Program-made: the position numbers and the translations under genes | Assembly: GCA_965214805.1 (NCBI GenBank) | Contig: OZ243982.1 | Location: 2,748,088-2,812,087 of the forward strand | Reading direction: 5' to 3' | Length of the DNA: 64,000 nt | Source: Thermoanaerobaculia bacterium | Lineage (GTDB): Bacteria; Acidobacteriota; Thermoanaerobaculia; Multivoradales; Multivoraceae | Shown: positions 9,153 to 50,195 of the stretch, in pieces | Numbering within the stretch: position 1 is the first letter of the stretch | How the letters are laid out: every line of letters starts with the position of its first letter | Notes under the pieces: model-generated | Databases searched by the model: none | What the model was told of the DNA's origin: nothing | Seen by the model: the letters and a program-made list of their open reading frames with translations, nothing else

Positions 9153-10097
9153 TCATGCGGTCGGTCGGACGGCTACTGGTCCGCCAGGCGGTCGGTCGGC
9201 CAGAAAGGCCCGGGCCACGGCGACGAACTCGTCGAGCTGGTCGTGATGGACCCAGTGCCCGGCGCCCTCGAAGTTGCGCGGCTCCGCATTCTGGAACACG
9301 TCGATGCGGCCGTCCTCGACCGGGTCGCTGGCCCAGCTCTCTGTGCCGCGCACCAGCAGGGTGGGGCAGGTGATCCGGCCCCAGATGCTGCGCAGCTCCT
9401 CCTCGTCGTAGCGGTAGGGCGGGAACGAGCGGACGTAGTTGTCGAACTTCCATGTGTAGGTGCCGTCCTCGTTGCGCGCCATGCCGTTGACCGTCAGGTG
9501 CCGAGCCTGTTCGGGGCTCAGGAAGCTGTTCACCTCCTGCATCCGCTCGGCCGCCGCGTCGAGTGACGGGTAGCGCCGCGGCTGCCGGCTCGCGAGCTTC
9601 TGCATGCTGCCGACCCAGCGGCGCATGCGCTCGTCGACCGGCGCGTTGACCCGGTCGCTGAGGATTCGGGGAGGCGGCCCCATGCCCTCGATCGCCACCA
9701 GCTTGTGAACGTTCTCGGGGTAGAAGCCGGTGTAGTGAAGGGCGATGTTCGCGCCCAGGGAGTGAGCGATGATGCGCACCGGGAAGCGGTCGAGGGCTTC
9801 GAGCAACTGCGCGATGTCGAGCACGAAGTCGGTGATCGCGTACATGCCTCCGATCGCCCACTGGCTGTCGCCGTGGCCGCGCAGGTCGGGCGCCACGATG
9901 TGGTAGTCGCCGCGCAGCGCGTTCGCGACCCAGTCCCAGTTGTGCGCGTGATCGCGCCCGCCGTGGATGAGCACCAGGGGCGGCTTGTCCTCGTTCCCCC
10001 AGTTCAGGTAGTGGAGGCGGAGGCGCTGGGAGATGTAGAACTGCGACGACGGGCCTACGATGTCCCGGAACGGACTGTCCCTGAAGGCAGTGCTCAC
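9153..10097 (-). CDS. Alpha/beta-hydrolase fold enzyme (epoxide-hydrolase/dehalogenase-like).
   Basis: ORF 9153..10097. HGG motif (LIHGGRDHAHNWD), nucleophile elbow AHSLGA, and a C-terminal catalytic His (GHWVHHD). Confidence 0.8.
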   Translation of the reverse strand: MSTAFRDSPFRDIVGPSSQFYISQRLRLHYLNWGNEDKPPLVLIHGGRDHAHNWDWVANALRGDYHIVAPDLRGHGDSQWAIGGMYAITDFVLDIAQLLEALDRFPVRIIAHSLGANIALHYTGFYPENVHKLVAIEGMGPPPRILSDRVNAPVDERMRRWVGSMQKLASRQPRRYPSLDAAAERMQEVNSFLSPEQARHLTVNGMARNEDGTYTWKFDNYVRSFPPYRYDEEELRSIWGRITCPTLLVRGTESWASDPVEDGRIDVFQNAEPRNFEGAGHWVHHDQLDEFVAVARAFLADRPPGGPVAVRPTA

Positions 10098-19335: not shown

Positions 19336-20709
19336 TCAAGGTCCGGCTGCCCGGGACGGAGGCGTTCCGCCCGGTGCGTCGGCCGCGTTCACCACTCGGA
19401 CCGGAGCGCCGTTGCCCAGCTGCCTGTGGCCCATGGTCAGCACGAGCTCGCCGGCCGCCAGGTTGCCGTCGACGGCGCTGAACTCGCCCGAACGGCCGGC
19501 GACAGTGACCGGCCGCCACTCGGCCCGGCCTCCGGCGGGCACCAGAACCCCCACCGAGCGGGCGCCGTCCATCGCCACCCGCTCCAGCAGGGCGGCGCCG
19601 GGCACGATCAGCGCGTCGTCGAGGTCGCGCAAGCTGACGGAGACGTCGGCGTACATGCCGGGCAGGAGCAGGTCGTCGGTTCCGGTCAGCTCGCCTTCGA
19701 CGAGCACGGTGCGATCGTTGCGCCGCACCTCGCCGGCGACCCGGCGCACCGTGCCGGAGAAGATCTGCTCGCCCGTGGCCTCGGTCGAGACGTCAAACGC
19801 GGCGCCGGCCCGGACGGCAGCCAGATCGCGCTCGGGCACGCGGAACTGAACCATCAGTGGAGCTTCCTCGACCAGCCGCAGCACGGGCGTGCCGGGTTGC
19901 ACCAGGGCGCCTCGGTCGAGATAGCGGTCGGCGACGACGGCATCGAACGGGGCCCGGACCCGGGTGTTCGCGAGCGCCTCCGCGAGTTGGGCCTCGCGGG
20001 CCGCGGACTGCCGCACCTGGGCTTCGGAGGCAGCCAGGGCCGCCCTGGCCGTGGCGTACCGGGACGTGACCTGCTGCTGCTCCTGCTCCGACAGCAGGCT
20101 CTGGCCGTAGAGCTCCATCGACCGTCGGTAGTCCGCCTCGACACCGATCAGTTCGGCCGCCGCCTTGTCGCGGTTTGCTTCGGCGACGCCGAGCTGGCCG
20201 CGGGCCTCCTGGAGCTGGTTCCTGATGTCGATGTCCTCGATCACGGCGAGAACGGCGCCGGCCGCCACCCGCTGTCCGATCCGTGCCGGCACGTCGACCA
20301 GCAGTCCCGAGACCTGGGGCGCGATGTCGGCGACCTCGCCGACCAGTTCGCCGGAGTAGGCCGTGCGAACGGAGAGGTGTCCCCGGCGGGCTGCCTCGGC
20401 GCGTACCGGGACGGATTGGGCCAGCAGGGCGTCGGCGCCCGAGGCGGCGGCTTCGGACTGCGTCGAACGGCCGGAGGCGATGACGGCCGCGGCGGCCAGC
20501 AGCACCACTCCGACCGCTCCGACGGCGATCCATCGGCCGTTGATCCGTCGCGGCGGTCTGCCGGCGGGTCGGGAACCGGCAGGCGCTCGGCGCTCGGCGC
20601 CGCGAGCGTGCTTCGGCCGACCGGGCGCGCCGGCCGTCGGGGCAGCGGTTGCTCGGGAGCGGGGCGGTACGGGACCGGCGCCGGCCCCTCCGGACTGGAC
20701 TATCGCCAT
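19336..20709 (-). CDS. RND membrane fusion protein (periplasmic adaptor subunit, HlyD family).
   Basis: ORF 19336..20709. N-terminal TM (WIAVGAVGVVLLAAAAVIA), a coiled-coil region (QLQEARGQLGVAEANRDKAAAEL...) and a beta-barrel C-terminal domain. Confidence 0.8.
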   Translation of the reverse strand: MAIVQSGGAGAGPVPPRSRATAAPTAGAPGRPKHARGAERRAPAGSRPAGRPPRRINGRWIAVGAVGVVLLAAAAVIASGRSTQSEAAASGADALLAQSVPVRAEAARRGHLSVRTAYSGELVGEVADIAPQVSGLLVDVPARIGQRVAAGAVLAVIEDIDIRNQLQEARGQLGVAEANRDKAAAELIGVEADYRRSMELYGQSLLSEQEQQQVTSRYATARAALAASEAQVRQSAAREAQLAEALANTRVRAPFDAVVADRYLDRGALVQPGTPVLRLVEEAPLMVQFRVPERDLAAVRAGAAFDVSTEATGEQIFSGTVRRVAGEVRRNDRTVLVEGELTGTDDLLLPGMYADVSVSLRDLDDALIVPGAALLERVAMDGARSVGVLVPAGGRAEWRPVTVAGRSGEFSAVDGNLAAGELVLTMGHRQLGNGAPVRVVNAADAPGGTPPSRAAGP

Positions 20710-40841: not shown

Positions 40842-41057
40842 AGGCGCGACGAGGAAGAGGCGAGGAGAAGAGAGGAAGCATGGCGTCCCGGAACAGCAGA
40901 AGGCGACGGGTCAAAGACCTGGTCTCGATGACCTGGCTTCAACCCGCCGCCCTTGGAACCCTGGACGCCGGAAACCCCTCTGGGGATCTGAGGGACCCGC
41001 GTCAACGCCGGTCCCTTGGTGTCCCCAAAGGGGGTCCCCGTGCTTCGTGTGAATCCC

Positions 41058-42119
41058 TTAGTTGACCGCCGGAAACGGGCTCTCCGGATCAAGTTCCACG
41101 CCCCGAGATGCCTCCGGCACAGGCGGACACTCAATGCTGAACATGGCCGTTGGCCCGTCAGTAGTGAACCCCGGAATCGTGTTCCTGGAGCTGGTGGCGC
41201 TGATCACCATTGCGGTGGGCGTGCCGCGATGCTGGTTGGTGCGACGACACGGATCAGCCGGTCCCGCTGTGTCCAGGTCAAGCGCCGGGATCGTCAAGGT
41301 CAGGCTGGCGGTCTGGTCCCCTTCCATGTAGCTGCCATCGTCCTTGTAGATGGCAGGCAGCGAGGTACCGTCCGGGCCGGTGTAGTTGAATGCCGCCGTC
41401 ACGTCCCCATTGGGATTGATGGCGACGCTTCCCTCGTTCCCGATCGACACGGTGAGCGCCATGGCATCATCGCCTCGCGTGATCGTCGTGCCCTTGACCG
41501 AGTCCCCGTCTGCATTGTCGATCTCGAGGGTGTATTCGCCCGACAGCAGACAATCGCTGCGCATGGGGCCGCACTTCTCGGGCTCCGCCGCGGGGAGAAT
41601 GTGCGGAAGAATGCCGACCCGTCCGCTGGTCGTGTCCTTGACCAGGGTCGCGTAATCACGGCTGGTCATCGTGATGTCGCCGCCCGACACGTCGAAGGGC
41701 GCCGTCTGCATGTTGGTCAGCACGCGATCCGGCAGCAGGTTCGAGACGGCGGAGTTCGTCTCGTCGTGGATCCAGTACCAGCCGCCGTCCTTCAGCCCGT
41801 GGATCTGGATCTCGCCGTCGTCCTGGTGGCAGGCGAGGCCGTTGTCCTCGGTGAACAGATGCGCGACGTTGCCGTCGTCGTCCGGATCGACCGACGCGGT
41901 GATGTTGATGTTGCCGCAGGTGACGATGAGTCCGACGCTGGTGAGCTTCTCGCCTTCCGCCATCGCCTCATCGTTGAACTCGCCGACGAAGCCGCCGCTG
42001 CCCTTGAAGAAGGGCACCACATGGCACTCGCCCTCGGGGCACTCGGCTGTCACCTCCGCCTGGGCAAACGCGAATGCCGGCACCAGGGCCAGCATGATTG
42101 CAATCGCTACCGCTTTCAC
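41058..42119 (-). CDS. Secreted protein, tandem-array paralog 1 (353 aa): conserved N-terminal domain plus a variable C-terminal domain.
   Basis: ORF 41058..42119, with a GTG start inside the conserved leader. Signal peptide (M)KAVAIAIMLALVPAFAFAQ. ECPEGECHVVPFFKGSGGFVGE...GGWYWIHDETNSAVSNLLP. C-terminal tail ...IECPPVPEASRGVELDPESPFPAVN. Confidence 0.75.
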   Translation of the reverse strand: MKAVAIAIMLALVPAFAFAQAEVTAECPEGECHVVPFFKGSGGFVGEFNDEAMAEGEKLTSVGLIVTCGNINITASVDPDDDGNVAHLFTEDNGLACHQDDGEIQIHGLKDGGWYWIHDETNSAVSNLLPDRVLTNMQTAPFDVSGGDITMTSRDYATLVKDTTSGRVGILPHILPAAEPEKCGPMRSDCLLSGEYTLEIDNADGDSVKGTTITRGDDAMALTVSIGNEGSVAINPNGDVTAAFNYTGPDGTSLPAIYKDDGSYMEGDQTASLTLTIPALDLDTAGPADPCRRTNQHRGTPTAMVISATSSRNTIPGFTTDGPTAMFSIECPPVPEASRGVELDPESPFPAVN

Positions 42120-42400
42120 AGTTTCTCTTCTCCTTCTCTCTCCTGGCGGCGGAGGGTTCCTCCTGACCGCGCTCGTTTCGGGACCCGGCGCTCGACGCGA
42201 GTACCGGAGTTGTTCTGCGACCCCGAGAACGTCAACTCGGGGGGCAAGCTCGACGGTCGCTCCATCACCTCCAGGAGAAAAAGTCTGCAGGACGACGCCC
42301 AGGAGAAGAATCCCCCCTGATGGGGCGCGCCTGCCTGTTTCCAGTGTCGTGTACGCTAACCCGGAACCGGCGACGGTGTCAACCTCGGTTCGGCCGCGCG
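42120..42400 (-). repeat. Conserved 5' leader and promoter block of the paralog array, copy 1 of 4 (near-identical ~270-bp unit).
   Basis: agtttctcttctccttctctctcctggcggcggagggttcctcctgaccgcgctcgtttcggg...ccaggagaagaatccc...gtttccagtg... recurs at 44032, 46234 and 48279 with only a few mismatches. The minus-sense read ends in a purine-rich GGAGAGAGAAGGAGAAGAGAAACTGTG RBS/start. Confidence 0.8.
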
Positions 42401-42439
42401 GATAAGAGCGGATAAACCGGAACAGCCGATGGTCCCCGA

Positions 42440-42840
42440 GGACTGCGAGCAGGCCCTGTCCGAGTGGCTGGGGCTACCCCGTGCCGATGATCAACCGGCG
42501 CGGTCTGTTCCCGGAACAGCAACCAGTCCTCTGTCCCAGTCCTCGCCGTCGGGTACGACGGGCCGGATACGGCCGCTCACCGTCGGGATGCAGTCGCCGA
42601 ACAAAGGTCGGGCGGATGGCCCCGGTGTCGGATCCGTTGGGCGACGATCGGTTCCACCGGGCCTTCGCAAGGCCTTCGTGGTCGCCGGGACAACACCGAG
42701 TACACACGGTCGTTCCTGCCTCCCGTCTTGGGGGCTTGTCCGGTTGTTGATTACCCCCGACCGTCGCCTCGGCGTTCCGCGGTGGGGATGAAGCCGACAC
42801 CGACGGCATTGGCGTTGCCGAGGAACTGTCGTAAACAGAA
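42440..42840 (-). pseudogene. Degenerate copy of the 5' region of the GT2 gene (39687..40841), carried within amplification unit 2.
   Basis: Stretches such as ggtctgttcccggaacagcaaccagtc...gccgaacaaaggtcgggcggatggccccggtgtcggatccg...gttccaccgggccttcg...gacaacaccgagt parallel 40400-40740 at about 70-80% identity with indels. Confidence 0.45.
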
Positions 42841-42969
42841 GAAAGGCGACGGGCCAAAGACCTGGTCTCGATGACCCGGCTTTCGACCCGCCGCCCTGGG
42901 ATGCACCGGAATCCGTCAGGAGGTAACCGCGGCCTCCTCCCAAGGGTCCTGTGCTTCGTGTGAACTCCC

Positions 42970-44031
42970 TTAGTCGACCGGGAACGGGTTCTCCGGAACG
43001 AGTTCCACACCCCGAGATGCGTCCGGCACAGGCGGACACGCGATGTGGTACATGGCCGTTGGTCCGTCGGTAGTGAACCCCGGAATCGTGTTCGTGGAGC
43101 TGACGGCGCTGATCACCACGCTGATCGGCGTGTCGCGAAGCTGGTTGTTGCGGCGACACGGATCATTCGCGTTGGTCAGGGAGGCAGCGTTAAACTTCGG
43201 GACCTTCACGGTCAGGCTCTCGGCCTGACTCCCGGGAGAGTATGTGCCACGGTCGGTGTAGATAGAAGGCACCACGGTGCCGCCCGGGCCGCCGGTGCGG
43301 AATTCCGTCATCACGGGATTAGCGGGTTCAACGGCGACGTTTCCCTCGCCCCCGATCGACGCCGTGACCGACATGTCGTCATCGCCTCGCGTGATCGTCG
43401 TGCCCTTGACCGAGTCCCCGTCTGCATTGTCGATCTCGAGGGTGTATTCGCCCGTCAGCAGACAATCGCTGCGCATGGGGCCGCACTTCTCGGGCTCCGC
43501 CGCGGGGAGAATGTGCGGAAGAATGCCGACCCGTCCGCTGGTCGTGTCCTTGACCAGGGTCGCGTAATCACGGCTGGTCATCGTGATGTCGCCGCCCGAC
43601 ACGTCGAAGGGCGCCGTCTGCACGTTGGTCAGCACGCGATCCGGCAGCAGGTTCGAGACGGCGGAGTTCGTCTCGTCGTGGATCCAGTACCAGCCGCCGT
43701 CCTTCAGTCCGTGGATCTGGATCTCGCCGTCGTCCTGGTGGCAGGCGAGGCCGTTGTCCTCGGTGAACAGATGCGCGACGTTGCCGTCGTCGTCCGGATC
43801 GACCGACGCGGTGATGTTGATGTTGCCGCAGGTGACGATGAGTCCGACGCTGGCGATCTCCTCGCCGTCCACCATGATGTCGGTGTCGAGCTCGCCGACG
43901 AAGCCGCCACTGCCCTTGAAGAAGGGCACCACATGGCACTCGCCCTCGGGGCACTCGGCTGTCACCCCCGCCTGGGCAAACGCGAATGCCGGCACCAGGG
44001 CCAGCATGATTGCAATCGCTACCGCTTTCAC
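42970..44031 (-). CDS. Secreted protein, tandem-array paralog 2.
   Basis: Same signal peptide and N-terminal domain, with the GTG start equivalent to paralog 1. The central/C-terminal region is diverged (…VAVEPANPVMTEFRTGGPGGTVVPSIY…). The tail is conserved (GVELVPENPFPVD). Confidence 0.75.
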   Translation of the reverse strand: MKAVAIAIMLALVPAFAFAQAGVTAECPEGECHVVPFFKGSGGFVGELDTDIMVDGEEIASVGLIVTCGNINITASVDPDDDGNVAHLFTEDNGLACHQDDGEIQIHGLKDGGWYWIHDETNSAVSNLLPDRVLTNVQTAPFDVSGGDITMTSRDYATLVKDTTSGRVGILPHILPAAEPEKCGPMRSDCLLTGEYTLEIDNADGDSVKGTTITRGDDDMSVTASIGGEGNVAVEPANPVMTEFRTGGPGGTVVPSIYTDRGTYSPGSQAESLTVKVPKFNAASLTNANDPCRRNNQLRDTPISVVISAVSSTNTIPGFTTDGPTAMYHIACPPVPDASRGVELVPENPFPVD

Positions 44032-44310
44032 AGTTTCTCTTCTCCTTCTCTCTCCTGGCGGCGGAGGGTTCCTCCTGACCGCGCTCGTTTCGGGACCCGG
44101 CGCTCGACGCGAGTACCGGAGTTGTTCTGCGACCCCGAGAACGTCAACTCGGGGGGCAAGCTCGACGGTCGCTCCATCACCTCCAGGAGAAAAAGTCTGC
44201 AGGACGACGCCCAGGAGAAGAATCCCCCTGATGGGGCGCGCCTGCCTGTTTCCAGTGTCCGGCACACTAACCCGGAACCGGCGACGGTGTCAACCTCGGG
44301 TCGCCCGCGC
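44032..44310 (-). repeat. Conserved 5' leader block, copy 2.
   Basis: Near-identical to 42120-42400. Confidence 0.8.
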
Positions 44311-44389
44311 GGACACCGGAAACAGCCGATGGTCCCCGAGGACTGCGAGCCGGCCCTGTCCGAGAGGCTGGGGCTACCCCCGTGTCGAT

Positions 44390-44610
44390 GATCGGCGCGG
44401 GTCTCTGTTCCCGGAACAGCAACCAGTCCTAGGCCTCGCCGTCGGGTACGACAGGCCGGGTACGGCCGCTCACCGTCGGGATGCAGCCGCCGAACGAGGT
44501 CGGGCGATGGCCCCGGTGTCGGACTCCGTTCTTCGCAGCCCCCCTCGCAAGGCCTTTCGTGGTCGCCGGGACAACACCGAGTCACATGGTTATTCCTGCC
44601 CCTTCTGGGG
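44390..44610 (-). pseudogene. Degenerate GT2 5'-fragment, in amplification unit 3.
   Basis: gtcgggtacgacaggccgggtacggccgctcaccgtcgggatgcagccgccgaacgaggtcgggcgatggccccggtgtcggactccg...gacaacaccgagtc is similar to 40540-40640. Confidence 0.4.
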
Positions 44611-45021: not shown

Positions 45022-45076
45022 GAACAGAAAAGAGAAGGGCGACGGGCGAAGACCATGGCCTTCGACCCGTCGCCCT
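45022..45076 (-). terminator. Rho-independent terminator downstream of paralog 3.
   Basis: Minus-sense GGGCGACGGGtcgaaggccatggtcttcgCCCGTCGCCC followed by TTCTCTTTTCTGTTCTCG. Confidence 0.6.
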
Positions 45077-45156
45077 GAACGCCGGAACCGGTGATGGGAC
45101 AAGGGGCCGTGACGCCCCTACCCACATGCGTTCCGATTGGCTTCGTGTGGATTCCC

Positions 45157-46233
45157 TTAGTCGACCGGGAACGGATTCTCCGGGACGAGTTCCACGCCCT
45201 CGGAGCCCTCATCGAGAGCTGGACACGAAACCTCGTAGAAGGCCGATGGCCCATCATCCATCATGAAACCCGGAATCGTGTGCATGGACGTGTCGAGCGT
45301 GACAACCACACGGTACGGCTTGTCGCGATGCTGGTTGTTGGTGTAACACGGATCATCAGCTTCGGCCAGCGCTGTGGCATCAAGCTTCGGCACCGTCAAT
45401 GTGATGCTCGACGTGGCCGTCAGCCCCGTCGTTGTGGTGTAGAGGTCAGGCACCGCGGTTCCGTCAGGGCCGCTGACAACGAAGTTCGCAGTCGGTTCCG
45501 TCGCCGGCTCGGCTCGGATGATTCCCTCACCCCCGATCGACACCGTGAGCTCAATGTCGTCGTCGCCTCGCGCGATCGTCTTGCCGTTGAACGACTCATC
45601 CTCGGCATTCTTGATCTCGACGGTGTACTCGCCCGTCAGCACGCAGCCCGTGCGCGTGTCGTCGTCGCACTTCGGGGTCGGGGTCGTCGCGGCGGGCGGC
45701 GGCTCGGGGAGAATGTGCGGAAGGATGCCGACCCGTCCGCTGGTCGTGTCCTTGACCAGGGTCGCGTAATCACGGCTGGTCGTCGTGATGTCGCCGCCCG
45801 ACACGTCGACGGGCGCCGTCTGCGTGTTTTCCAGCACGTCCTTCGGCAGCAGGTTCGAGACGGCGGAGTTCGTCTCGTCGTGGATCCAGTACCAGCCGCC
45901 GTCCGTCAGCCCGTGGATGTTGATGTCGCCGCTGTCCTGATCGCAGGCGAGGCCGTTGTCCTCGGTGAACAGATGCACGACCTTCCCGTCGGCGTTCGGA
46001 GCGGCCGACGCTGTGGTGGTGATGTTGCCGCAGGTGACGACGAGCGTGGCCTCGGTGATCTCCTCGCCGTCCACCATGATGCTGGTGTCGAGCTCGCCGA
46101 CGAAGCCGCCGCTGCCCTTGAAGAACGGCACCACATGGCACTCGGCGTCGGGGCAGTCGGCTGTCACCCCCACTTGGGCAAACGCGAATGCCGGCACCAG
46201 GGCCAGCATGATTGCAATCGCTACCGCTTTCAC
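45157..46233 (-). CDS. Secreted protein, tandem-array paralog 3.
   Basis: ORF 45157..46233. Conserved N-terminal domain. Pro/Thr/Ala-rich linker PEPPPAATTPTPKC. Distinct C-terminal domain. Conserved tail GVELVPENPFPVD. Confidence 0.75.
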   Translation of the reverse strand: MKAVAIAIMLALVPAFAFAQVGVTADCPDAECHVVPFFKGSGGFVGELDTSIMVDGEEITEATLVVTCGNITTTASAAPNADGKVVHLFTEDNGLACDQDSGDINIHGLTDGGWYWIHDETNSAVSNLLPKDVLENTQTAPVDVSGGDITTTSRDYATLVKDTTSGRVGILPHILPEPPPAATTPTPKCDDDTRTGCVLTGEYTVEIKNAEDESFNGKTIARGDDDIELTVSIGGEGIIRAEPATEPTANFVVSGPDGTAVPDLYTTTTGLTATSSITLTVPKLDATALAEADDPCYTNNQHRDKPYRVVVTLDTSMHTIPGFMMDDGPSAFYEVSCPALDEGSEGVELVPENPFPVD

Positions 46234-46510
46234 AGTTTCTCTTCTCCTTCTCTCTCCTGGCGGCGGAGGGTTCCTCCTGACCGCGCTCGTTTCGGGACCC
46301 GGCGCTCGACGCGAGTACCGGATTTGTTCTGCGACCCCGAGAACGTCAACTCGGGGGCAAGCTCGACGGTCGCTCCATCACCTCCAGGAGAAAAAGTCTG
46401 CAGGACGACGCCCAGGAAGAAGAATCCCCTGATGGGGCGCGCCTGCCTGTTTCCAGTGTCCGGCACACTAACCCGGAACCGGCGACGGTGTCAACCTCGG
46501 GTCGCCCGCG
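46234..46510 (-). repeat. Conserved 5' leader block, copy 3.
   Basis: Near-identical to 42120-42400 (with a 1-nt indel in the G-run). Confidence 0.8.
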
Positions 46511-47049
46511 CGGACACCGGAAACAGCCGATGGTCCCCGAGGACTGCGAGCAGGCCCTGTCCGAGAGGCTGGGGCTACCCCCGTGTCGATGATCGGCGCG
46601 GGTCTCTGGGCGTGTCGGGTCGATTGCCTCCCCCGACCATCGCCTCGGCGCGCCGTCCGGCAAAGGCGCGACGCGGAGAATGAGGAAAGCACGGCGTCCC
46701 GGAAAACACAGAAGAAGGCGACGGTTCGAAGACCTTGAAGACTTGGTCTCGACGACCTGAGCTTCGCAACCCGTCGCCTTGGAACCCTGGGCGTGGGCGC
46801 CGGGAACCTCTCTGGGGACCTGAGGAAAAAGCCGACGCCGGCCCCCTGATCTTCTCGCGATTCGAGAAACTCGACGTGCTCATCGTCGATGCGTGAACAG
46901 GCCCCAGTCGACCCGGATAGCACAGTCTTGACTGCCAGGCAACTCCCGCATCGGCACCGTTTTCAGCGCGCCCCGTGCGCTCGCGTCCAACACCGCCAGT
47001 GGCGGGGACCCGGCCTCAGGGGGTTCGACGCGCATGGACCGGAAAAGAG

Positions 47050-47162: not shown

Positions 47163-48278
47163 TTAGTCGACCGGGAACAGATTGTCCGGGATGAGTTCCA
47201 CGCCCCCCACGGCGCTACCCGGGAGAGGCGGACAGCGAACCGCGTAAGCGGCCGATGGCCCATCATCTGTGAATCCCGGAACCGTGTTACCGGAATTGGT
47301 GGCCGTGATGGCCACCACGATCGCTACGTCGCGACGCTGGTTGCTTTCGCCACACGGATCAGTCGTGCTTCGCTGGGCAAGAGAGTTGAATATTGGCATC
47401 GGCAAATCGATGGACGCCACATCAGTCCCGGTCACCCCCCCCCCGTATACGTTAGGCACGTTGGAGTTGCCGTCGAGGTCGGTGACAACGAAGTCCGCCG
47501 TTATTTCTCCAGTGCTGTCGACTTTGATGATTCCAGTGCCTGTGACCGACGCCGTGATCGTAAGGCTGGCAAGTGTTGATCGGGTGAAAGTGAAGCCAGC
47601 GATCTTGGTTCCGGCTATTATCGACGGAGCTGATATCTCGATATCGACTTCGTAATCGCCCGTCAGCAGGCAACCCTTGCGCCTGCCGCCTTCGCACTTC
47701 GGGGTCGGGGTCGTCGCGGCGGGCGGCGGCTCGGGGAGAATGTGCGGAAGGATGCCGACCCGTCCGCTGGTCGTGTCCTTGACCAGGGTCGCGTAATCAC
47801 GGCTCGTCATCGTGATGTCGCCGCCCGACACGTCGACGGGCGCCGTCTGCGTGTTTTCCAGCACGTCCTTCGGCAGCAGGTTCGAGACGGCGGAGTTCGT
47901 CTCGTCGTGGATCCAGTACCAGCCGCCGTCCGTCAGCCCGTGGATGCTGATCTCGCCGCTGTCCTGATCGCAGGCGAGGCCGTTGGCCTCGGTGAACAGC
48001 TGCACGACCTTCCCGTCGGCGTTCGGAGCGGCCGACGCTGAGGTGGTGATGTTGCCGCAGGTGACGACGAGCGTGGCCTCGGTGATCTCCTCGCCGTCCA
48101 CCATGATGCTGGTGTCGAGCTCGCCGACGAAGCCGCCGCTGCCCTTGAAGAAGGGCACCACATGGCACTCGGCGTCGGGGCAGGAAACGCTCGTCTTTGC
48201 CGGCTCGGACACGCCGCCCTGCGCAAACATGAATGCCGGCACCAGGGCCAGCATGATTGCAATCGCTACCGCTTTCAC
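47163..48278 (-). CDS. Secreted protein, tandem-array paralog 4.
   Basis: ORF 47163..48278. Conserved N-terminal domain and PEPPPAATTPTPKC linker. Yet another C-terminal domain. Tail GVELIPDNLFPVD. Confidence 0.75.
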   Translation of the reverse strand: MKAVAIAIMLALVPAFMFAQGGVSEPAKTSVSCPDAECHVVPFFKGSGGFVGELDTSIMVDGEEITEATLVVTCGNITTSASAAPNADGKVVQLFTEANGLACDQDSGEISIHGLTDGGWYWIHDETNSAVSNLLPKDVLENTQTAPVDVSGGDITMTSRDYATLVKDTTSGRVGILPHILPEPPPAATTPTPKCEGGRRKGCLLTGDYEVDIEISAPSIIAGTKIAGFTFTRSTLASLTITASVTGTGIIKVDSTGEITADFVVTDLDGNSNVPNVYGGGVTGTDVASIDLPMPIFNSLAQRSTTDPCGESNQRRDVAIVVAITATNSGNTVPGFTDDGPSAAYAVRCPPLPGSAVGGVELIPDNLFPVD

Positions 48279-48545
48279 AGTTTCTCTTCTCCTTCTCTCT
48301 CCTGGCGGCGGAGGGTTCCTCCTGACCGCGCTCGTTTCGGACCCGGCGCTCGACGCGAGTACCGGAGTTGTTCTGCGACCCCGAGAACGTCAACTCGGGG
48401 GCAAGCTCAACGGTCGCTCCATCACCTCCAGGAGAAAAAGTCTGCAGGACGACGCCCAGGAGAAGAATCCCCCTGATGGGGCGCACCTGCCTGTTTCCAG
48501 TGTCGTGCACGCTAACCCGGAACCGGCGACGGTGTCAACCTCGGC
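48279..48545 (-). repeat. Conserved 5' leader block, copy 4, at the array boundary. Homology ends at about 48545.
   Basis: Near-identical to the other copies, then unique sequence begins. Confidence 0.8.
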
Positions 48546-49174: not shown

Positions 49175-49772
49175 GAAGCGGGTTTTTCAGGCTGCGCTCT
49201 GGTCCCGGATCGGGAAGGCACGCCCCCATCCTGGATGCCAGCTGGCTCGGCGGCTCGCCGCGATGGCGTCGATCCGCCCGCAGCCCGGACTCGATGAAGA
49301 CCGGGATGCCGTACCGCCCGCCCGGCTGACCGCGCATCGGATTCGCGCGCTTCCGCCGCCGACAGTCCGACAGACAAGGGGCTGACAGTTCGACAAGGAT
49401 GCGAGCCGTGCAGCTTTCGTCTGCATGCTCGCTTCACCGGGTGAGCGCCGCCCTGCCTGCAGGATCAGGCTCTACCGGCGGGGATCAGAACGAGGCGCCG
49501 TGGGACCTGCCCTCGGACGCTCAGGCGCGAGGCTCTGGCGCGTCTGGCCGAGCGCACAACCTGGCCCAGCACAACCGGGCCGACATACCCCGACTTCCAT
49601 GCCGAGCGTCCTGTCCGGCGGCCCTTTCTCGCCGAGCCGGACCCTTGGCGCCGGTCGAGGTCCTCCTCGGGCAGCGCGGCGGCTCGCCTTGTGCCTTGCA
49701 CACGTATGCATTGTTGTGCTAGGTATGAGGCCGGTGGACGTTCCGGTCGATTGCGGAGGATGAAGAGGGGAG

Positions 49773-50195
49773 ATGAAGAAACTGCGGGGGACGAAGATGA
49801 ACATCGGCAAGGACCTGGTAGCCGCCTCGGCTGCGCCGCTCGTGCTGGCGATCCTGGTCGAGGGCGACAACTACGGCTACGCGATCATCAAGCGGGTGAG
49901 CGAGTTGTCGGGCGGCCGCCTGCGGTGGACGGACGGCATGCTCTATCCGGTGCTGCACCGTCTCGAGCGGCTGGGCCATGTCGAGGCGCGCTGGGCGACA
50001 GCGAAGAGCGGCCGTTGCCGCCGGTACTACCGCATCACCGAGGCGGGGCGGGCGCACCTGGAGACGCAGAGAAGGCAATGGCAGGCGGTGGACGCCACGC
50101 TCCGGGAGGTCTGGATGGTGTTCTTCCGGGCACCGGATGCAGGACAGGCGCCGCGGCGATGGGGGAAACGATGGGGGATTCGACCGGCATGGTGA
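49773..50195 (+). CDS. PadR-family transcriptional regulator.
   Basis: ORF 49773..50195. LVLAILVEGDNYGYAIIKRVSELSGGRLRWTDGMLYPVLHRLERLGHVEARW...GRCRRYYRITEAGR. Confidence 0.8.
   Translation: MKKLRGTKMNIGKDLVAASAAPLVLAILVEGDNYGYAIIKRVSELSGGRLRWTDGMLYPVLHRLERLGHVEARWATAKSGRCRRYYRITEAGRAHLETQRRQWQAVDATLREVWMVFFRAPDAGQAPRRWGKRWGIRPAW

Follow-up and report, generated by a model that had tools for sequence, protein, structure and literature searches.

The window, i.e. the whole stretch of 64,000 nt from contig OZ243982.1 of a Thermoanaerobaculia bacterium, contains an array of four paralogous genes (P1–P4), all encoded on the minus strand. Its neighbours are a gene for a PadR-family regulator on one side and exopolysaccharide genes on the other. 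The genes and the hairpins following them are located as follows:

41058–42119, minus strand: P1, secreted paralog of 353 aa, GTG start
42970–44031, minus strand: P2, secreted paralog of 353 aa, GTG start
45157–46233, minus strand: P3, secreted paralog of 358 aa, GTG start
47163–48278, minus strand: P4, secreted paralog of 371 aa, GTG start
40892–40952, minus strand: terminator-like GC hairpin with U-rich tail after P1 (predicted fold)
42833–42896, minus strand: equivalent terminator-like hairpin after P2
45023–45075, minus strand: equivalent terminator-like hairpin after P3
47051–47100, minus strand: equivalent terminator-like hairpin after P4

The intergenic gaps within the array measure 850–1125 nt, and all four genes encode a signal peptide beginning with MKAVAIAIMLALVPAF. 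The terminator-like hairpins have energies of -29 to -38.5 kcal/mol and lie 62–105 nt past the stop codons. Because each paralog possesses such a hairpin of its own, it can be regarded as a separate transcription unit; judged from its parts (promoter, leader, gene, and terminator), each unit looks self-contained. A weak match to the Rfam family mir-641 (45035–45077, minus strand) is the terminator hairpin after P3 and does not represent a microRNA-like element.

No Pfam or NCBIfam model matched the P1–P4 proteins. The family is mainly confined to metagenome-assembled genomes of Acidobacteriota (Thermoanaerobaculia, 'Ca. Multivorans', and Holophagales), several of which stem from sponge metagenomes; a literature search on 'Candidatus Multivorans' gave no results. 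In the protein alignment, a conserved N-terminal half and eight conserved cysteines are accompanied by a variable middle part, and the extreme C-terminus carries the conserved motif ELVPxNPFPVD, which resembles a sorting or recognition motif. An AlphaFold model (pLDDT 76) is all-beta and gave only weak Ig-like/FN3 matches in the PDB.

The first-pass annotation had described a near-identical leader of ~270 bp, repeated four times and extended in units 1–3, and this description was confirmed. The ~263 nt 5' of the paralog starts (42119, 44031, 46233, and 48278; minus strand) are 95–98% identical; over positions -265 to -1 the pairwise identities of the four leaders are likewise 95–98%, with a mean of 96.7%. 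A search of the window by means of nhmmer with the leader returned exactly these four copies. Units 1–3 are alike up to about position -385 and units 1–2 beyond that, and the likeness of unit 4 to the other units ends ~8 nt upstream of the TTGACA. The additional repeat 5' of the promoter-like site thus comprises ~120 nt common to units 1–3, is much longer in units 1–2, and is absent from unit 4. The elements of the blocks are:

42120–42382, minus strand: promoter-like site and ~225-nt leader of unit 1, 5' of P1 (from alignments and motif coordinates)
44032–44293, minus strand: promoter-like site and leader of unit 2, 5' of P2
46234–46494, minus strand: promoter-like site and leader of unit 3, 5' of P3
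48279–48538, minus strand: promoter-like site and leader of unit 4, 5' of P4
42353–42382, minus strand: promoter-like site of unit 1 (TTGACA, 18-nt spacer, TAGCGT)
44264–44293, 46465–46494, and 48509–48538, minus strand: equivalent promoter-like sites of units 2–4
42263–42283, minus strand: core of unit 1, CTTTTTCTCCTGG overlapping GGAGGTGATG, positions -164 to -144
44175–44195, minus strand: core motif of unit 2
46376–46396, minus strand: core motif of unit 3
48420–48440, minus strand: core motif of unit 4
[quoted passage not shown]
44063–44075, 46265–46277, and 48310–48322, minus strand: equivalent hairpins of units 2–4
42122–42143, minus strand: polypurine RBS region of unit 1, GGAGAGAGAAGGAGAAGAGAAA, positions -24 to -3, followed by CT and the GTG start
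44034–44055, 46236–46257, and 48281–48302, minus strand: equivalent polypurine RBS regions of units 2–4
42383–42700, 44294–44600, and 46495–46600: extra upstream repeat of units 1–3

The TTGACA, the GC hairpins, and the polypurine tract in front of the GTG start, which had been noticed in the sequence beforehand, were located in all units. In unit 1, the TTGACA occupies positions -263 to -258 (42377–42382) and TAG(C/T)GT positions -239 to -234. On the sense strand, the -10 element is followed by ACTGGAAAC, a long GC hairpin, the CTTTTTCTCCTGG/GGAGGTGATG core, three further GC hairpins, and the polypurine tract. The promoter-like site is present in 9 of 9 copies from three strains, with a -35 element that matches the consensus in 6/6 positions and a -10 element reading T-A-G-N-G-T. 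The TAGCGT of the window matches the -10 consensus in 3/6 positions, including A2 and T6, and a consensus promoter scan did not flag the TTGACA-N18-TAGNGT site of the window. This site is predicted to be the promoter of each unit; the transcription start and any processing site are likewise predictions. Two other promoter types, sigma-54 for CTGGAAACAGGCAGGC and ECF for the GGAAC motifs, were weighed by eye and rejected; both candidates match their consensus poorly and are situated 3' of the conserved sigma-70-like site. Within the promoter spacer lies the palindrome CCGGTTCCGG (42359–42376 and the equivalent positions of units 2–4). In a third strain (L077, ~9745–9765) the palindrome reads CCGATTTCGG, i.e. 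both arms are changed and the inverted repeat is kept. This repeat, flanked by the -35 and -10 elements, is a possible operator.

The indels that distinguish the copies are single bases (G5/G6, C5/C6, and one C missing in unit 4). Since they are not multiples of three, the block is non-coding. A coding function was also rejected on three grounds: these indels cause frame shifts, there is no conserved ORF ending at the UGA of GGUGAUG, and the upstream ORFs starting at the AUG of the core are not conserved. In the leaders of the window and of a sister strain, a short run of 3–6 G and one of 5–6 C vary by copy (42306–42311 and 42229–42234 in the window), and two related leaders, L043 (~2895–2910) and L045 (~2900–2915), contain homopolymeric tracts of 12–14 G. 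Tracts of this kind are prone to slippage and, in front of a variable gene family, could lead to phase variation. The GGAGG/CCUCC hairpin is retained in the sister strain with a loop of 4 nt and a change from U-G to U-A in the outer stem.

The origin of the near-identity was deduced from a comparison with two strains: the sister strain (L001), in which the same array was found by protein search, and L077, which contributes the first gene of the array (g4). The flanks of the array are ~98% identical between the window and L001 (200-nt windows over 10 kb) and 97.5% identical between the window and L077 over 8.8 kb. Within the array, the identity falls to 58–91%. For three segments, the following identities were determined:

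Leader, -265 to -1: 96.7% within the window, 79.9% within the sister strain, 86.3% between genomes
CDS, +60 to +540 (N-terminal domain): 90.0% within the window, 86.2% within the sister strain, 89.2% between genomes
CDS, +540 to +1000 (variable part): 60.5% within the window, 62.2% within the sister strain, 64.2% between genomes

The leaders of the sister strain are 77–82% alike among themselves and 81–90% like those of the window, and between strains the leader has diverged about five times faster than the flanks. The same element is thus uniform in the window and heterogeneous in the sister strain; its uniformity therefore reflects recent homogenisation and not exceptional purifying selection. 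The leaders cluster by genome, whereas the N-terminal coding sequences cluster across genomes into the groups {w1, w2, s1, s2, g4} and {w3, w4, s4} (w, window; s, sister strain). Furthermore, g4 is a mosaic whose 5' end is w1/w2-like and whose 3' half is w4-like. Concerted evolution is thus indicated by paralogs that are closer within a genome than between genomes, by a mosaic gene, and by segment-specific groupings. On these sequence comparisons, the near-identity is the product of concerted evolution via gene conversion or unequal crossing-over between paralogs. The argument that near-identity as such demands a function beyond that of a promoter consequently fails, given flanks that are ~98% identical and sister-strain leaders that are only 77–82% alike. 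The option listed last in the first-pass annotation, a recombination substrate that homogenises the array, is the one borne out by the higher leader identity within the window than between genomes and by the mosaic g4. It had also been stated that the leaders are far better conserved than the coding sequences. This holds in comparison with the 3' halves of the genes (50–78% identity), but not in comparison with the first ~540 nt of the coding sequence (85–96%).

Two further differences between the strains were observed. Unit 3 of the sister strain (s3, L001 4749–7084) has a leader that is short by ~75 nt, with the pyrimidine tract and the core deleted; its gene is frameshifted, and the DDE transposase gene of an IS element lies directly downstream. 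The core is missing from this copy alone, and its gene is disrupted, which fits a required core but is no proof of it. Moreover, ~800 nt of the window (49264–50067), including the 5' part of the PadR-family gene (49773–50195), have no counterpart at the same place in L077 (~8803).

Homogenisation raises the question of whether the leader has any function at the RNA level. The block might consist of a promoter and a dispensable spacer that was copied with each duplication, and its conservation would then be a by-product of duplication and recombination. Homogenisation does account for the near-identity within the window, and the fivefold faster divergence of the leader between strains agrees with a dispensable spacer. 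On the other hand, unit 4 is unalignable to the other units 5' of the promoter and its leader is alignable throughout.

A core consisting of a pyrimidine tract followed by GGAGGUGAUG occurs as a single sense-strand copy in the leaders of dozens of Thermoanaerobaculia ('Ca. Multivorans') genomes. In ~0.6 Mb of fetched loci, 52 distinct occurrences of the core were found, and every downstream gene is a member of the family. The strict 10-mer GGAGGTGATG is restricted in the 64-kb window to the four leaders; a match of GGAGGCGATG at position 20473 (plus strand) lies inside a coding region and was discarded as a chance match. A profile built from two leader types of other genomes (A and B) alone matched exactly the four window leaders with E = 2.9e-5 each, the next best match having an E-value of 2.2. 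The position of GGAGGUGAUG/GGAGGTGATG relative to the start codon is constrained:

Window: -153
Type B: -157 to -168
L043, L045, and L066: -174 to -196
Type A: -211 to -227

The stretch shared between the window leader and the other types is the ~23-nt core only. The type A profile gave no nhmmer match in the window, and a covariance model of the 3' half of type B (R1) did not match the window leaders; homology to types A and B beyond the core was therefore rejected at the sensitivity of the nhmmer and covariance-model searches used. Searches for the window type itself did not recover it outside the three close strains: an nhmmer search of 75 species-representative loci yielded a weak match to the core of L043 only, and the single match to the leader pattern TTGANGTTCTCGGGGTNNCAGAA in a metagenome-wide scan is located within an oxidoreductase gene and was attributed to chance.

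All types have a common layout, namely a promoter, a variable 5' part, the core, a run of GC hairpins, and a strong RBS. The leaders of the relatives are 300–400 nt long and are more conserved across species than the coding sequences they precede. For example, one pair is 88% identical over 297 nt upstream and 68% identical in the coding sequence; in a second example, the identity is 84% over 454 nt upstream, and only 60 nt of the coding sequence can be aligned. Type A precedes genes for MKLMKH.. proteins and starts at TTGACG-N17-TATAGT ~400 nt 5' of the ATG; this site is homologous in position to that of the window and was flagged by the promoter scan (10/12). Type B precedes genes for MKNYLMFALL.. 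proteins. In other genomes, one leader usually heads two to four paralogs with short spacers, whereas the window and the sister strain have a leader for each paralog. The comparison of ~50 loci shows the window leader to be one type in a family-wide set of long leaders that share an invariant core.

Types A and B coexist in L016/L017/L026 (OZ244786.1), L007/L020 (JAPPFP), L009/L021 (JAPVXD), and L018/L027 (OY762911), each type being linked to its own protein subfamily, and OX638294.1 contains at least five leaders. An inverted repeat distinct from the leader, GATATAGCA-N4-TGCTATAT(C), was found 60–80 nt 5' of the last (third) gene of the array in L005, L006, L008, L011, and L014; it may be an internal promoter or operator.

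RNA structure was assessed for each leader type. The fold energy of the single window leader is unremarkable (z = -1.4). Among nine window-type copies, 98% of cells were paired and most changes lead from G-C to G-U; three pairs show compensatory changes, nearly equalled by shuffles, and the variation is too small for significance. For type A, RNAalifold combined with pair counting yielded 25 compensatory cells versus 9.6 in shuffles (0 of 500 reached 25), and a covariation score of 0.19 compared to 0.02–0.07 for slid controls; type A also contains an invariant hairpin, GAUC-UUCG-GAUC. In type B, nine pairs with compensatory changes are distributed over four hairpins. The proposal of a structured 5' UTR or regulatory RNA, for which covariance in homologous leaders had been suggested as a check, is thus supported by the shared invariant core and by the covarying relatives of types A and B, and only slightly by the window-type copies taken alone. 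At the gathering score, Rfam 15 gave 0 matches for the window, and a tRNA was the sole match in eight related loci; at a permissive threshold, the matches in the window were at chance level up to E = 10 and none was relevant.

The unremarkable fold energy and the non-significant covariation of the nine window-type copies are what would be expected of a spacer lacking any function in the RNA. This explanation is nevertheless considered very unlikely, in view of a core that does not vary among 52 distinct leaders of many species and keeps a constrained distance and orientation, of the cross-species conservation of the leader in excess of that of the coding sequence, and of the covarying hairpins of types A and B.

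GGAGGUGAU is a perfect 9-nt complement of AUCACCUCC, which we take to be the 3' tail of bacterial 16S rRNA on the basis of the general 16S 3' end, the 16S gene of this genome lying outside the window; the universal 16S 3'-end primer contains GGAGGTGATC. This sequence resembling a Shine-Dalgarno (SD) element lies a long way 5' of the start codon; its position is -153 in the window and -157 to -227 in the relatives. With a mean predicted unpaired probability of 0.30 versus a leader average of 0.36 (52 leaders), the GGAGG is not especially single-stranded.

Two nucleotides after the core GGAGG, an invariant AUG follows. It might start a tiny upstream ORF in GGAGGUGAUG, or transcription might stop prematurely at the hairpin and U-tract just before it; either would set the level of full-length mRNA or protein. 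The AUG is indeed invariant, and ORFs of 3–50 codons begin at it in every type; furthermore, the long GC hairpin of the window (GCAGGCGCGCCCC...GGGCGUCGUCCUGC) is followed 4 nt further on by UUUUU. However, a spacing of 2 nt between GGAGG and AUG is too short for normal initiation, and the ORFs are not conserved: the peptides differ in length and sequence between types and even between copies of the window. With regard to attenuation, a terminator scan flagged no intrinsic terminator in the leaders, those of the window with the U5 run 4 nt past the hairpin included, and types A and B are without a hairpin that abuts the U-tract. A leader peptide or an attenuator is therefore the least probable of the explanations considered, and hardly to be expected.

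The main rival concerns the pyrimidine tract CUUUUUCUCCUGG just 5' of the core. It could pair with the purine-rich region of RBS and start codon ~140 nt away, which would close the leader into a domain and hide the SD sequence; the masking would be opened by temperature, by a ligand or protein, or by docking of a 30S subunit on the adjacent GGAGGUGAU. In the window leader, the tract is paired with the polypurine region in the MFE, the centroid, and the RNAalifold structure alike; the duplex amounts to -16 to -19 kcal/mol in all window-type copies, and the predicted unpaired probability of the tract in window leaders is low (0.12–0.13). In several type B leaders, 12 of 13 positions of CACUUUUUCUCCU match AGGAGAACAAGUG, which extends from the SD sequence through the start codon, and L012 combines an additional A in the RBS spacer with extra U's in the tract. 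Cognate pairs of tract and RBS are slightly better than non-cognate ones (-13.8 vs -13.0 kcal/mol; permutation p = 0.04), an advantage that is small and stems from sequences that are mutually related. Such pairing is to be expected between any CU-rich tract and any AG-rich RBS. Type A, moreover, is without such complementarity (-4 to -11 kcal/mol), its U-tract pairing locally; the pairing is weak in L007, L024, and L073, and G to A changes in the sister strain disrupt one register of the helix (CCAGGAGAG). Masking of the RBS is therefore judged rather improbable as the function of the core, although masking and 30S docking might also operate together.

In the reading that we prefer, each block would be the promoter and ~225-nt 5' untranslated leader of one complete, tandem-duplicated transcription unit for a secreted all-beta protein, and, as the comparison with the two other strains shows, the 5' ends of the units have recently been homogenised by recombination between paralogs. 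The core GGAGGUGAU would dock a 30S subunit inside the leader in the manner of a STAB-SD element, and the U-rich tract immediately 5' of it may be cleaved beforehand. The docked subunit would protect the mRNA and/or pass ribosomes on to the strong downstream RBS, resulting in high and stable expression, and the GC-rich hairpins could add stability. STAB-SD-like docking of the 30S subunit, or stabilisation of the mRNA, appears to be the most likely mechanism of the core. The explanation as a whole, which combines homogenised promoter-leader units, a family-wide core, and a STAB-SD-like docking or stabilising role of this core, is considered probable.

The closest known counterpart is the STAB-SD of the cry3Aa 5' UTR, which was reportedly described by Agaisse and Lereclus in 1996. 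STAB-SD elements are known from Firmicutes, where the 5' exonuclease RNase J1 operates. For cry3Aa of Bacillus thuringiensis, transcription begins at -558, and processing yields a stable mRNA that is protected by an SD-like sequence near -125 (PMC12970973). Both systems have an SD-like, 16S-complementary site more than 100 nt 5' of the start codon in a very long leader, no link of this site to a conserved ORF, a promoter far upstream, and a product that is expected to be abundant. The system studied here differs by its occurrence in Acidobacteriota instead of Firmicutes, by a longer complementarity (9 nt, GGAGGUGAU) preceded by a conserved pyrimidine tract, and by the location of the core within a series of covarying hairpins; its predicted accessibility is not raised, and it is known from sequence alone.

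A structured 5' UTR and protection by ribosomes have also been described for the hbs mRNA of B. subtilis (PMC5737220). Like this leader and those of S-layer genes, the leaders of the family are long and structured, a strong SD sequence precedes the coding sequence of an abundant protein with an exported or structural role, and binding of ribosomes is proposed to block decay. In those cases, however, the protective SD is the translation SD, whereas here a second SD-like site lies ~150–230 nt 5' of the real RBS. S-layer genes, too, have long leaders. Masking of the SD sequence is the principle of the fourU and ROSE RNA thermometers, and in the icaR 3'-UTR a UCCCC motif pairs with the SD sequence (PMC3868564). 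As in these elements, the SD and start region have a complementary pyrimidine tract on their own mRNA; in contrast to them, the pairing would be long-range (~140 nt) inside the 5' UTR, is absent from type A, and has weak covariation support. The leaders have nothing in common with Rfam families, including the motifs associated with Acidobacteria.

With respect to the array, the conserved region of the Campylobacter fetus sap homologues begins 5' of the ORF and extends ~550 bp into it, and the opa genes of Neisseria and the bab genes of Helicobacter are paralog families with a shared 5' cassette that undergo concerted evolution. The array resembles them in its conserved 5' block, which spans the upstream region, the signal peptide, and the N-terminal domain and is combined with divergent 3' halves, in the mosaicism between copies and strains, and in the homogenisation within a genome. 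It differs from them in that each copy has its own promoter-like site and terminator and that an inversion or silent-cassette system is not evident. A role of the array in the variation of surface or secreted proteins would be a guess.

More speculatively, the pyrimidine tract, the GGAGGUGAUG core, and the covarying hairpins might constitute an undescribed class of cis-regulatory leader RNA that is specific to Thermoanaerobaculia and that parks or recruits 30S subunits, or senses a signal, and in this way controls a family of secreted Ig-like proteins that exists in many copies and diversifies fast. The conserved 5' cassette, from the promoter and leader to the signal peptide and the N-terminal domain, might at the same time serve as a recombination handle by which variable 3' halves are shuffled in host-associated Acidobacteriota, similar to a contingency locus. 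This extension is put forward tentatively, as a possibility that may well not hold.

The results separate two look-alikes within one genome, namely identity that arises from homogenisation and identity that arises from function. The near-identity caused by concerted evolution is ordinary; a group of leaders with a core complementary to 16S rRNA is undescribed and absent from Rfam. It links a leader element to an uncharacterised multi-copy family of secreted proteins in uncultured Acidobacteriota, many of which come from metagenomes of sponges or other hosts. Should the core act as a stabiliser that docks ribosomes, control of the STAB-SD kind would reach well beyond Firmicutes, and a compact expression module for GC-rich bacteria would be at hand. 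If the 5' cassette drives recombination, the arrays would be a tractable case of programmed diversification of exported proteins in symbionts.
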